Assembly (NCBI GenBank): GCA_964600515.1
Contig: CAZRKD010000028.1
Span: 1-11,877, forward strand
DNA length: 11,877 bases
Source: an uncultured bacterium
GTDB taxonomy: Bacteria; Bdellovibrionota_F; JAHFAK01
Direction: 5' to 3'
Part shown: positions 1,082 to 7,234 of the stretch, piece after piece
How the letters are laid out: each line of letters starts with the position of its first letter
Position numbering within the stretch: position 1 is the stretch's first letter
Notes under the pieces: generated by a model
Database searches by the model: none
What the model saw: the letters and a program-made list of their open reading frames with translations, nothing else
Told to the model about the DNA's origin: nothing
Position numbers and translations under genes: made by a program

Positions 1082-1521
1082 ATTTTTTTGCTAAATTCAG
1101 CGACTATAGCTACGCACTCATGCGGATGGTCGTAGGTTTTATGTTTTCATTTCACGGAGTGCAGAAAATTTTTGGTATTTTAAGTGATTACCCGTCTCCA
1201 GCAATTGGAACACAAATGTGGTTTGGTGGATTAATTGAACTTATTGGCGGCTTTCTTATTATGGTTGGTTTCAAAACTCGCTGGGCGGCATTCATTACAA
1301 GCGGTATGATGGCTGTTGCATATTTTCAGTTTCATTGGAAATTTCAATTCAATACCAACTTTTTCCCCGCAATTAATCAAGGTGAGCCAGCAGTTCTTTA
1401 TTGCTTCATTTTTCTTTATATTGCTTGCAAAGGCAGCGGAATATGGAGTCTGGAAAAATTAGGTGCAGACCAACTCATGAACATATTTGGTATGGGGCAT
1501 ATCCCAATTCAAAAAGTGTGA
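1078..1521 (+). CDS. DoxX-family inner-membrane protein, with a 19-aa C-terminal extension contributed by a repeat element
   Basis: 147 aa with four predicted TM helices. It has the DoxX-like motifs 'MRMVVGFMFSFHGVQKIFG' and a near-terminal 'GSGIWSLEKL' (DoxX proteins normally end with G.G.WSLD). A strong RBS AAGGAGG lies 6 nt upstream, and the ATG overlaps the AbiEii stop (ATGA). The tail 'GADQLMNIFGMGHIPIQKV' comes from repeat copy 1. Confidence 0.7.
   Translation: MNFFAKFSDYSYALMRMVVGFMFSFHGVQKIFGILSDYPSPAIGTQMWFGGLIELIGGFLIMVGFKTRWAAFITSGMMAVAYFQFHWKFQFNTNFFPAINQGEPAVLYCFIFLYIACKGSGIWSLEKLGADQLMNIFGMGHIPIQKV
1462..1499 (+). repeat. Copy 1 of a 38-nt dispersed repeat (ggtgcagaccaacNNatgaNNNNatttggNatggggca). 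It forms the 3' end of the DoxX ORF.
   Basis: By manual alignment it is identical at about 34/38 positions to the reverse complement of 4853-4890 and at about 33/38 to the reverse complement of 7197-7234. A shared A-rich 5' flank (gaaRaaWta) precedes the copies at 1462 and 4853. Confidence 0.8.
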
Positions 1522-1565
1522 CATGCTTTTGGAAAAAAGTACACTCACTTTTCTACTCAATAAAT

Positions 1566-2078
1566 TCACTTTTGTGTAAAGCGAGAAATACTATCAATAT
1601 GTTGGGGAAAGTTCTGTAAGAGATAATTTCTTTTTCCTAATTCAAAATCTATAAACTCAAACCCAGGAGCAACGGTGCATCCGACAAGAGCATAAGAATT
1701 CTTATCAATTACTTCAGCTGCAAACCATGTCTGTGCTGGTATGATATGTTGAAAACAACTGGTATTGGTATTTCCTAATATGGTCGTCTTTAAAAGTCCT
1801 TGTGAATCTATTTCGTAGATTGTTAAAGGACTGCCTGCATAGAAATGCCAAATTTCATCAGATTTAATTTGGTGAAAGGCCGAGAAGTCAGCGCTTTCGA
1901 GTAAAAAATAAATAGTCGTACAAAAAACTCTATCCCCATTAAACCGTTTAGGAAGACCTTCTTGTGTAATGATTGCTCGCGATCTGTATACTTCACGATA
2001 ATACCCACCTTCAGGGTGTTTTATTAAATCAAATTTTTTGATGAGGAAGGCGGCCTCTTTATTAGTAATCATATTCAT
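1566..2078 (-). CDS. DUF985 / cupin_5-family protein
   Basis: 170 aa. The N-terminal 'LIKHPEGGYYREVYRS' and the '..FHQIKSDEIWHFYAGSPL..' block are characteristic of the DUF985 cupin family. It lies 4 nt downstream of the SPFH gene on the same strand, so the two probably form an operon. Confidence 0.65.
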   Translation of the reverse strand: MNMITNKEAAFLIKKFDLIKHPEGGYYREVYRSRAIITQEGLPKRFNGDRVFCTTIYFLLESADFSAFHQIKSDEIWHFYAGSPLTIYEIDSQGLLKTTILGNTNTSCFQHIIPAQTWFAAEVIDKNSYALVGCTVAPGFEFIDFELGKRNYLLQNFPQHIDSISRFTQK

Positions 2079-2082
2079 ATAA

Positions 2083-2958
2083 CTACCTTCTGTTTTCTTT
2101 CGTCTCTCTTATTACCGGCAGCACTCCTGCCATTTCGCCAATGACATTCACAAGTTCAGTATCAGAAGGAAGCACAATCTTAGCATTATTTTTTAATGAA
2201 TTCTCGACCGCTTGGATTTTTCGTAACACTTGGGCATTCCCTTTGAAATACGTTTCGGCGGCTTCGTTGACGAGCTGAATTGCTTGGGCTTCACCTTCTG
2301 CTTCGAGAATCTTTGCTTGTTTAATTCCTTCGGCCTTTTTGATTTCCGAGCGTTTAACACCATCTGCTTGTGTCTCAGCTGCAGTAGCAAAATCGATTGC
2401 GGCGATTTTTTCATTCTCGGCCTTCACAACTTTATTCATTGTTTCTTGAACATCTTTTGGGGGATCAATTTCTTTTAATTCAGTTCGCATGATTTCAAGT
2501 CCCCAGTTGTGTGTTTCTGTGGTCAGTGTTTTCAAAAGATCGGTATTGATTCTCCCGCGTTCGCTATTGGCAGATTTGAGACTCATTGTTCCGATGATGT
2601 TTCGTAATGTTGTGCGTGCTAAATTCACAATTTGCCAGCGATAATCATTAACTTTATATTGAGAATTCTTTACGCTTTCTTCATCGGTTCGTATTTTAAA
2701 ATATACCTGCGCATCGACTGTAGCATTGAGATTATCATTGGTAATGATTACCTGCGGTTCAGCATTCACCATTTGTTCGGTTGTATTTACAATGTAAATT
2801 TGTTGAATGCCGGGAATTATCCAGTGAAATCCAGGATGCGCAAACTTAGAATATTTGCCGAGGGTTTCGATAAGCGCTCTACTTGTCGGACGAACAATTC
2901 TAATACCGGACAAGAGAAATAAAATAATAATTCCAAGAAGAACATAAAAAATTGTCAT
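2083..2958 (-). CDS. SPFH/band-7 (stomatin/prohibitin/HflK-C-like) membrane protein
   Basis: It has an N-terminal TM helix (IFYVLLGIIILFLLSGI), an SPFH core, and a C-terminal coiled-coil rich in A/E/K (AENEKIAAIDFATAAETQADGVKRSEIKKAEGIKQAKILEAEGEAQAI). The ORF track starts at 2970 (MEVCM..). I prefer the internal ATG at 2958, because GGAGG lies 5 nt upstream of it and is embedded in the earlier codons. Confidence 0.8.
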   Translation of the reverse strand: MTIFYVLLGIIILFLLSGIRIVRPTSRALIETLGKYSKFAHPGFHWIIPGIQQIYIVNTTEQMVNAEPQVIITNDNLNATVDAQVYFKIRTDEESVKNSQYKVNDYRWQIVNLARTTLRNIIGTMSLKSANSERGRINTDLLKTLTTETHNWGLEIMRTELKEIDPPKDVQETMNKVVKAENEKIAAIDFATAAETQADGVKRSEIKKAEGIKQAKILEAEGEAQAIQLVNEAAETYFKGNAQVLRKIQAVENSLKNNAKIVLPSDTELVNVIGEMAGVLPVIRETKENRR

Positions 2959-3037
2959 ACATACCTCCATTGATTTTTAATTTGTATTATACGTACGATA
3001 TGTATACTGCAGAATTATTAAATACAAGGTTGAATGT

Positions 3038-3478
3038 ATGAACCGTTTTGAAATCATTATATTTCTTTTCTTTAGTTTTGCTTGCGGGATTGGTTTATAT
3101 ACTTTTTATTATGCCAAAGGAGCATCGTATTTGACGAATGATCCACAAGCATGTGCAAATTGTCATATAATGGAAGATCATTATAGTGCATGGCTCAAAT
3201 CGAGTCATCGAAATGTAGCTACGTGTAATGATTGTCATGCACCTCATGATATTATTGGCAAATATTTCACCAAAGCTTTGAATGGATTTAACCATAGTCT
3301 TGCGTTTACTACCGGACGTTTCTCTGAACCTATCAGTATTACAAAACGTAATCATGAAATTACCGAAGCAAGCTGTCGATATTGTCATGCAAATATTACG
3401 AACATGATTGATCATAATCCTTCGGCAGATCAATTATCATGTGTACGCTGCCATGCCAATATTGGGCATGCACATTAA
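3038..3478 (+). CDS. nrfH: Cytochrome c nitrite reductase small subunit NrfH (NapC/NirT-family tetrahaem quinol dehydrogenase)
   Basis: 146 aa with an N-terminal TM anchor and four CXXCH motifs (CANCH, CNDCH, CRYCH, CVRCH). The first is CXXCHxM, as in Desulfovibrio NrfH haem 1. It lies 9 nt upstream of nrfA. Confidence 0.85.
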   Translation: MNRFEIIIFLFFSFACGIGLYTFYYAKGASYLTNDPQACANCHIMEDHYSAWLKSSHRNVATCNDCHAPHDIIGKYFTKALNGFNHSLAFTTGRFSEPISITKRNHEITEASCRYCHANITNMIDHNPSADQLSCVRCHANIGHAH

Positions 3479-7027: not shown

Positions 7028-7043
7028 AATTTACGCTTACATT

Positions 7044-7133
7044 CGGAGAGAGGGGGATTCGAACCCCCGGTACGGTGTTACCCGTACGACGGCTTAGCAA
7101 GCCGTTGCCTTAAGCCAACTCGGCCATCTCTCC
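7044..7133 (-). tRNA. tRNA-Ser (anticodon GCT); class II with a long variable arm; no encoded CCA
   Basis: The reverse complement GGAGAGATGGCCGAGTTGGCTTAAGGCAACGGCTTGCTAAGCCGTCGTACGGGTAACACCGTACCGGGGGTTCGAATCCCCCTCTCTCCG folds as a cloverleaf. It has a 7-bp acceptor stem, an anticodon loop TTGCTAA (GCT), a long variable arm CGTACGG/CCGTACC, a T-arm GGGGG-TTCGAAT-CCCCC, and discriminator G. Confidence 0.88.
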
Positions 7134-7148
7134 AAAAATTAATAAAAC

Positions 7149-7176
7149 ACTATGATTTTTGTAGAAAATAAGTCAA
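7149..7176 (-). promoter_or_regulatory. Candidate sigma70-type promoter for tRNA-Ser
   Basis: On the minus strand: TTGACT (plus coordinates 7171-7176), a 16-nt spacer, and CATAGT (7149-7154). The predicted TSS lies about 9 nt upstream of the mature tRNA 5' end. Found by eye. Confidence 0.3.
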
Positions 7177-7196
7177 GCGAGAGGTAGTACAAAATA

Positions 7197-7234
7197 TGCC
7201 CCATCCCAAATGAGTTCATTTGTTGGTCTGCACC
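7197..7234 (-). repeat. Copy 3 of the 38-nt repeat (minus orientation). It is non-coding and sits between the divergent tRNA-Ser and ABC-transporter promoters.
   Basis: The reverse complement reads ggtgcagaccaacaaatgaactcatttgggatggggca. It preserves the same frame (GADQQMNSFGMGH) but is not part of an ORF: a TGA lies 19 codons upstream, with no start codon in between. Confidence 0.8.

Follow-up and report, generated by a model that had tools for sequence, protein, structure and literature searches.

A dispersed 38-nt repeat with dyad symmetry at gene boundaries of an uncultured bacterium, probably a REP-like extragenic palindrome

The subject of this study is a 38-nt element that occurs three times in an 11,877-nt contig of an uncultured bacterium (Bdellovibrionota_F; contig CAZRKD010000028.1 of assembly GCA_964600515.1), which was analysed over its whole length and is called the window below. 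The element belongs to a dispersed repeat family with dyad symmetry, its copies are found at gene boundaries, and both the repeat unit and one of its sites are kept in a relative that is about 80% identical. The explanation to which we incline, with moderate confidence when identity and mechanism are taken jointly, is that the family is a lineage-specific extragenic palindrome, similar to the repetitive extragenic palindromes (REPs) and REPINs of other bacteria, which acts as a hairpin or terminator at the 3' ends of genes. The identity as a REP-like extragenic palindrome is the more secure part of this explanation, and the role as a terminator the less secure one. A REP-like repeat is a familiar kind of bacterial element and is new only for this lineage.

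The window was scanned with the 38-mer pattern GGTGCAGACCAACNNATGANNNNATTTGGNATGGGGCA, and even with three mismatches the only matches were the three copies listed in Table 1, at exactly the positions given in a first-pass annotation made from the sequence; no match was found in 200 dinucleotide-preserving shuffles of the window. Repeat detection recovered the same pairs of copies, one direct (D1) and two inverted (I1 and I2), extended to 39-47 nt. The first-pass estimate of 33-34 identical positions out of 38 holds for copies 1 and 2 (34/38) and for copies 1 and 3 (33/38) when identities are counted on the sequences, but copies 2 and 3 share only 32/38. The A-rich 5' flank, first noticed at the two coding copies, is real and is found at all five copies known in the window species (5/5). 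On the opposite strand, a T-rich tract follows the conserved arm at each of these five sites (5/5). The 38-mer is open in two forward frames and contains TGA in the third.

The copies are not confined to the window. A scan of JGI metagenomes with the 38-mer pattern was the source of contigs L001, L002, L003, L004 and L005, and both L001 and L005 carry a further copy (Table 1); in L005 the stop codon of the tnaA-like gene lies 5 nt beyond the element. Identity to the window is 99.8-99.9% for contigs L002, L004 and L006, L001 matches the ENA contig L049 at 99.9%, the sample of L049 also yields the window-identical L006, and L001, L004 and L005 all come from one JGI metagenome. Because of this shared origin we infer that the window and contigs L001, L002, L004, L005, L006 and L049 represent one organism. 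Look-ups with the proteins of the window gave only contigs of at most 7 kb, all from its own locus. The comparison extends over about 20 kb of the window species and 15.6 kb of the relative, contig L050. Five distinct loci were found in the former, two of them because they bear the element, and three sites with four units in the latter, which gives an apparent density of about one per 4-5 kb. A local triplication limited to the 6-kb stretch, which the position of all three window copies within 5.8 kb might suggest, is already refuted by the copies on unrelated contigs of the same species (L001 and L005) and by related half-units in another genome (L050), and its probability is close to nil; the family is dispersed, as the first-pass annotation had supposed.

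Matches elsewhere were sought in several collections. One genome per GTDB species was scanned for GCAGACCAACNNATGANNNNATTTGG, with no match, and no match to the element was obtained in phage and plasmid collections. Five matches in IMG/VR, scanned with the 5' half of the element, are attributed to chance, their 3' halves being unrelated. The only element-like match outside the lineage lies in an unrelated metagenome contig (L003, 986-1023), where 26 nt identical to the element core occur inside a phage portal-like open reading frame (ORF) and encode YADQLMKTFG; this match was likewise judged to be chance, since the outer arms are absent and about one such match is expected for a 20-base pattern.

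Two contig ends lie at copies of the element. After the element of L001 and the sequence TTTTAAAAC, the contig ends with AAATGACTTCATAAGTTG (2518-2544), which repeats 18 internal bases of the element exactly; either a second tandem copy is truncated here by the end of the contig, or the assembly went wrong at the repeat. Contig L004 ends inside copy 2, at window position 4870, which suggests that the repeat breaks assemblies.

The repeat unit is best seen in the relative. The acyl-CoA dehydrogenase (ACAD) encoded on L001 has an 84% identical homologue on L050, a contig of the metagenome-assembled genome (MAG) GCA_023250585.1, the coding DNA of which is about 80% identical to that of the window species at the nucleotide level. 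L050 contains four copies of a 25-27-nt half-unit, AAAAGGTGGGGACC[GA]ACATATGAAC, which corresponds to the 5' half of the 38-mer and is identical to the L005 copy at 22 of 25 positions. These occur as a solo unit, as a wide inverted pair and as a unit with a degenerate partner (Table 1). The half-unit consensus of about 25 nt is AAAAGGTG-NN-GACC-N-AC-WWATGAAC, and its 5' start reads AGGTGCAG in the window species and AGGTGGGG in the relative, with GTGC or GTGG at the 5' foot. Judged from its sequence, the 38-mer is a compact inverted doublet, in which a loop of about 4 nt joins the conserved half-unit to an inverted copy that is more degenerate.

L001 and L050 carry orthologous P460-like genes (71% amino acid identity), and the spacers behind these genes have the arm TTCATAWGTYGG..ACCTTTTAAAAC in common, while the remainder is unalignable; the site would therefore be older than the split of the two genomes. 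At greater distances, searches with nhmmer and hidden Markov models of the 38-mer and the half-unit found no family member at the pyrF loci of 32 more distant MAGs (about 0.4 Mb, labelled Bdellovibrionales, Bdellovibrionaceae, 'Deltaproteobacteria' etc.) or on the pyrF contigs of a 77% relative, and synteny is not conserved at these loci. It should be noted that L050 also carries other intergenic inverted repeats, with 47-nt arms that are 94% complementary (1118-1235), 37-nt arms (950-1094) and 45-nt arms (12279-12452), which are unlike the 38-mer in sequence and may represent a second hairpin repeat family. Between the arms of the wide inverted pair (13174-13189) lies a short tandem repeat of about three AAAACC units.

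The dyad of the 38-mer comprises 13 pairs in three helices, GTGC/GCAC, (G)ACCAA/TTGGT(C) and ATG/CAT, and in the five copies of the window species these pairs are formed in 92% of cells, compared with 29-43% when the partners are slid by one to three columns. The first-pass annotation had recognized only a weak stem of 5 bp and had concluded that the element is not REP-like; neither statement can be upheld, since the element is an imperfect palindrome of two inverted half-units and the relative has the half-unit both singly and as a wide inverted pair. Folds of single sequences range from -8 to -17 kcal/mol, with z values of -1 to -3.9 in four of the five copies. Copy 2 forms a hairpin of -11.5 kcal/mol (z -2.6), which is flanked by T-rich tracts on either side, and the L005 copy is a textbook A5-hairpin-T6 arrangement of -16.6 kcal/mol. 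The sequence before the U-tract reads ...GGTCNNCACC. The stems of the element are interrupted, and some copies have no U-run directly after the stem.

Each of the eight sites is found at a gene boundary (8/8), none is inside the body of a gene (0/8), and six of the eight are positioned after stop codons. The distance to stop codons was assessed for the seven sites on contigs with gene models on both sides: four of them lie within 20 nt of the end of a stop codon, as against 6.6% of random positions (binomial probability about 6e-4 by our own arithmetic), which fits the first-pass suggestion of a 3'-end element. The L001 copy stands outside this test and is a further site, 18 nt after a stop codon. 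Copies 1 and 2 occupy the convergent junctions of doxX with the cupin gene and of nrfA with pyrF. On the plus strand, the first base of copy 2 is the base that follows the nrfA stop codon (4850-4852), and copy 1 lies 66 nt beyond the stop codon of the cupin gene, on whose sense strand the conserved arm is followed by TAATTTTT. Copy 3 is found 62 nt upstream of the 5' end of the tRNA-Ser gene, outside the tRNA and between two promoter-like -35 boxes (7176-7171 on the minus strand and 7239-7244 on the plus strand). It is covered by no ORF of at least 50 amino acids, and its shared frame reads GADQQMNSFGMGH, with a stop codon 17 codons upstream and no start codon before the internal ATG of the element.

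The window is about 96% coding and its convergent genes abut or overlap, so that an element at a junction is read into by the neighbouring gene. The doxX ORF reads copy 1 in frame and ends with ...GADQLMNIFGMGHIPIQKV and a stop codon; the last 19 residues of the protein (13 from copy 1 and six from read-through) have no counterpart in homologues. Among the 150 best cluster representatives out of 1.84 billion, the alignments end at query residues 88-133, in 106 of 150 cases at residues 126-128, and the tail begins at residue 129. In PyrF, copy 2 supplies the ending EEI-GADQLMTTFGMGH in place of EEI-SAVL, and about four native codons have given way to 13. The 119 nearest homologues (identity up to 78%) end with AAKKIAEEI[SA]AVL or with short unrelated extensions, the GADQ tail is present in none of them (0/119), and the NCBIfam full-length model of PyrF reaches only as far as residue 232 of 244. 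Given that PyrF homologues end with EEISAVL and that DoxX homologues stop aligning at about residue 128, both tails are, by comparison of sequences, non-homologous add-ons, and the coding use of the 38-mer is secondary. The first-pass annotation was thus right in placing the conservation at the nucleotide level and in regarding the element as co-opted coding sequence. Its statement that one frame is read at every copy has to be abandoned: tatC in L005 reads the element one base off the GADQ frame (...KKVKK-VQTNI) and ends at the conserved TGA, so that the last five amino acids and the stop codon are supplied by the element. Because the element is open in two frames and has TGA in the third, a convergent gene either reads through it (DoxX, PyrF) or stops inside it (TatC).

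The ending of two unrelated proteins with GADQLMxxFGMGH in the same frame might be taken to mean that selection acts on the protein, with the 38-mer coding for a C-terminal peptide motif that serves as a tag for sorting or degradation. This is scarcely credible and already contradicted, because copy 3 is untranslated, tatC uses another frame, the L001 copy follows a gene on the opposite strand, the tail is present in no PyrF or DoxX homologue, and the differences between copies are not preferentially synonymous. The common peptide is a by-product of the position of the element, and the same frame is open in all copies because the copies are near-identical. A protein search with the concatenated peptides of all four open frames against 5.8 billion sequences gave no match at E <=10, since a match of 13 amino acids is unable to reach significance against a collection of this size. 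In the L004 counterpart of copy 1 (3372-3409), from another metagenome, ATGGGG is replaced by ATTGGG, which turns the DoxX tail ..FGMGH into ..FGIGH. A mini-gene with a Shine-Dalgarno motif and a start codon (AGGTG-N11-ATG) was considered and rejected, because the following ORFs have 2-26 codons and are unrelated after eight residues.

According to the explanation that we favour, a REP-like palindrome that acts as a 3'-end hairpin, the copies occupy small, non-essential gaps at gene boundaries, mostly 0-20 nt from a stop codon. With so little non-coding DNA and with convergent genes that abut or overlap, a neighbouring gene runs into an element at a junction, and the element has thereby replaced or extended C-termini (13 amino acids for four in PyrF, 19 added in DoxX, the last five and the stop codon in TatC). 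The transcript would fold into an imperfect stem-loop of -9 to -17 kcal/mol followed by a U-rich tract, and at the end of the gene directly before it this structure would either terminate or attenuate transcription, weakly and often in both directions, or block 3'-exonucleases. The family may have spread by a hairpin-dependent mechanism, either one like that of the REP-associated tyrosine transposases (RAYTs) or gene conversion.

In several respects the family resembles the RAYT-associated REPs and REPINs of E. coli, Pseudomonas and Stenotrophomonas. Like them, it is an imperfect palindrome of small size (about 20-40 nt), has a sequence specific to the lineage and lies outside genes, at their ends and at convergent junctions. 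Singlets (L050, 12031-12057) are found together with inverted doublets in two configurations (tight in the 38-mer, wide at L050, 13147-13221), the doublets are flanked by A-runs and T-runs, and a site persists across species. There are also differences: the half-unit is not a clear palindrome by itself, the doublet, including its loop of about 4 nt, is no longer than 38 nt while REPINs are larger than this, the head GTGC or GTGG does not clearly follow the GTAG/GTGG-plus-hairpin layout, and several copies overlap annotated coding sequence. Singlets, two doublet configurations, flanking A/T-runs and co-option as terminators have been described for REPINs (PMC3337134), and a role as terminator, attenuator or mRNA stabiliser has been proposed for REP-like elements (PMC3337134, PMC3116915).

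Several observations weigh against a REP-like element with a terminator role. None of the 13 dyad pairs shows a compensatory base change among the five copies, and thus selection on the structure is not demonstrated. With z +0.5 and +0.15, the hairpin of copy 1 does not exceed shuffled sequence in stability, no hairpin is formed by the solo unit behind the ACAD gene of L050 (z +1.8), and a simple terminator consensus scan calls no copy. Two of the eight sites (copy 3 and L050, 14794) are in divergent promoter spacers, in which no gene is evident that a terminator could serve, and other overlapping convergent pairs of the window (6188/6198 and 9494/9499) are without the element. At every stop-proximal site, a gene whose end lies 0-66 nt upstream has as its sense strand the one that reads ...GGTC-NN-CACC and a T-run, but this rule carries information at no more than three sites, those outside convergent junctions. 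A RAYT or other transposase was found in no ORF of the window, L049 and L050 (about 45 kb of the two genomes), and the copy number is taken from only about 20 kb of the window species and the 15.6 kb of the relative.

Some of these points, namely the lack of covariation, the copy and the solo unit without a stable hairpin, the two sites in divergent spacers and the negative terminator scan, also speak for a purely selfish or neutral REP-like element without host function. With about 96% of the genome coding, gene ends would then be the few places that tolerate insertion, the hairpin would serve mobilisation as single-stranded DNA, and host roles are indeed incidental in the REPIN model (PMC3337134). 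Nevertheless, such an element is considered rather unlikely, because one arm has been kept at the orthologous site, in a spacer that is otherwise unalignable, despite a nucleotide divergence of about 20%, because the consensus is conserved between the genomes at 22 of 25 positions, above the level of coding DNA (about 80%), and because of the T-rich tract after the conserved arm at 5/5 sites of the window species.

The entity that is conserved is a sequence of 25 nt and not a hairpin, it exists solo, in tight doublets and in a wide pair, it has TGA in one frame, and the two genomes differ at defined positions (GCAGACCA vs GGGGACCG). These features could indicate a recognition signal that is read as double-stranded DNA or by a dedicated protein, that is, an uptake-signal-like tag or a site for a dimeric protein, with a dialect in each genome and with inverted pairs that double as terminators. 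However, the unit (about 25 nt) is much longer than known uptake cores (9-12 nt), the density of about one per 4-5 kb is below that of the DNA uptake sequences (DUS) of Neisseriaceae and the uptake signal sequences (USS) of Pasteurellaceae, and the lineage is not known to have a competence system or a receptor. The likeness to DUS and USS in terminators consists in an oligonucleotide that occurs solo and in inverted pairs just after genes, in species 'dialects' and in a TGA (UGA in the DUS) in one frame, sometimes translated (PMC3630211). In contrast to the common intragenic DUS (PMC3630211), 0/8 sites of the present family are in gene bodies despite the high coding density. A recognition signal is therefore regarded as improbable. 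Still less credence is given to the wider proposal that the half-unit is a species-specific signal for a protein or a DNA-uptake machinery, that its pairs are bidirectional terminators and that C-termini are systematically rewritten. If this wider proposal were true, the family would represent a DUS/USS-like system outside Neisseriaceae and Pasteurellaceae.

The arrangement of the copies in the window would also be compatible with gene cassettes bounded by a site for site-specific recombination (att, dif or attC-like), an option raised in the first-pass annotation: copies 1 and 2 are inverted (I1) around cupin-SPFH-nrfHA, copies 2 and 3 are direct (D1) around pyrF-dCMP deaminase-unknown gene-tRNA-Ser, a tRNA gene adjoins copy 3, and the dyad has a central spacer. 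No evidence for this option was found in the window, where a recombinase gene is absent and the enclosed genes are housekeeping genes. Moreover, copy 3 and the tRNA are 62 nt apart, in the ~80% identical genome a family member sits at the corresponding place behind the orthologous P460-like gene, solo half-units exist, no resemblance to known Xer-binding arms was seen, and phage, plasmid and viral collections gave no matches. A recombination site is thus very improbable. Specifically, a dif/Xer-like site was rejected because of the many copies and the lack of likeness to the conserved XerD arm. A diversity-generating retroelement was rejected as well, since there is no reverse transcriptase, the differences are not limited to template adenines, and the repeat is far too short.

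Returning to the REP-like palindrome, three further kinds of element invite comparison. Rickettsia palindromic elements (RPEs) and the Correia elements of Neisseria are palindromic repeats that likewise give translated residues to unrelated proteins; Ogata and colleagues in 2000, and Claverie and Ogata in 2003, reportedly described how such a repeat adds residues to unrelated proteins without destroying them. RPEs have 100-150 bp and are inserted in frame within gene bodies, and Correia elements have about 100-155 bp, terminal inverted repeats and a TA duplication. The present element differs from both in its length of 38 nt, in affecting only C-terminal ends and in the absence of a consistent target duplication. 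The same length, with flanks that are only A-rich or T-rich, also sets it apart from miniature inverted-repeat transposable elements (MITEs) and Correia elements as defined by terminal inverted repeats, a target-site duplication and at least 50 nt. Bidirectional intrinsic (Rho-independent) terminators have in common with the element the succession of A-tract, hairpin and T-tract at convergent junctions, best developed in L005 (-16.6 kcal/mol). They are unlike it in that the element is a sequence family, which ordinary terminators are not known to be, and in that its stems are interrupted and weak and are not called by the consensus scan.

The family provides a concrete repeat for an uncultured, probably Bdellovibrio-like lineage, which can be used as a genome marker and to explain assembly breaks. 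It also carries a warning for annotation, because the last 5-19 residues of several proteins are repeat-derived and non-homologous. In a more general sense, it shows how a small palindrome at convergent junctions of a genome that is about 96% coding comes to supply C-terminal tails and stop codons. The family raises no long-standing question and is in accord with all that is known about REP-like elements.

Table 1. Copies of the repeat family and annotated features of the window
Feature	Contig	Coordinates	Strand	Remarks
Copy 1	window	1462..1499	+	inverted doublet; similarity spans 1453-1502; encodes DoxX residues 129-141
Copy 2	window	4853..4890	-	last 13 codons of pyrF, with the pyrF stop codon directly after
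Copy 3	window	7197..7234	-	non-coding; in the 140-nt divergent spacer from tRNA-Ser to an ABC ATPase gene (7275, +)
Element	L005	994-1031		between convergent tatC and tryptophanase-like (tnaA-like) gene
Element	L001	2480-2517	-	18 nt past the stop codon of a P460-like gene on the opposite strand
Solo half-unit	L050	12031-12057		14 nt past the ACAD stop codon; without hairpin
Wide inverted pair	L050	13147-13173 and 13190-13221		starts directly after the P460-like gene stop codon; -19.4 kcal/mol, z -2.7
Half-unit with degenerate partner	L050	14794-14820		divergent spacer; -14.2 kcal/mol
Short ORF	window	33-215		overlaps the toxin gene; runs toward the contig start
AbiEii-family nucleotidyltransferase toxin gene	window	212-1081		
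doxX	window	1078..1521	+	DoxX-family membrane protein
Cupin (DUF985) gene	window	1566..2078	-	convergent with doxX
nrfA	window	3488..4852	+	cytochrome c nitrite reductase, identified by CxxCH motifs and by its place behind nrfH; convergent with pyrF
pyrF	window	4849..5583	-	OMP decarboxylase
279-aa ORF	window	6188-7027	-	between the dCMP deaminase gene and tRNA-Ser; 11-nt overlap with the convergent deaminase gene
tRNA-Ser(GCT)	window	7043..7134	-	

The genes of the window are, in order, those for the AbiEii toxin, DoxX, the cupin, an SPFH protein, NrfH, NrfA, PyrF, dCMP deaminase, the 279-aa ORF and tRNA-Ser, which are followed by an OpuC-like ABC transporter, tatD, a PSP1 gene and holB. The gene upstream of nrfA is nrfH-like by its Pfam family, and the 279-aa ORF has no Pfam or NCBIfam match. 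The short ORF that overlaps the toxin gene is probably the 3' end of an AbiEi antitoxin gene. Within the start of the toxin gene, the minus strand contains a perfect-looking hairpin of 15 bp followed by a T-run (257-292). The assemblies of the window and of L004, which are independent, both break at window position 1.

An Rfam search of the window with E values up to 1 gave no match at the 38-mer copies; the only matches were the tRNA and an antisense artefact. The latter, to 'Plastid-psbl-rps4 3UTR' at 7044-7097(+), scores 63 bits, under the gathering score of 68, and was rejected as an RNA element because it represents the antisense strand of tRNA-Ser and is a database artefact. At the other end of the window, the last 47 bases (11831-11877) consist of a Nextera adapter (CTGTCTCTTATACACATCTGACGCTGCCGACGA) followed by an apparent index and the start of a flow-cell adapter. 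The same-species contig L002 departs from the window at 11830, and this end of the deposited contig is adapter contamination.

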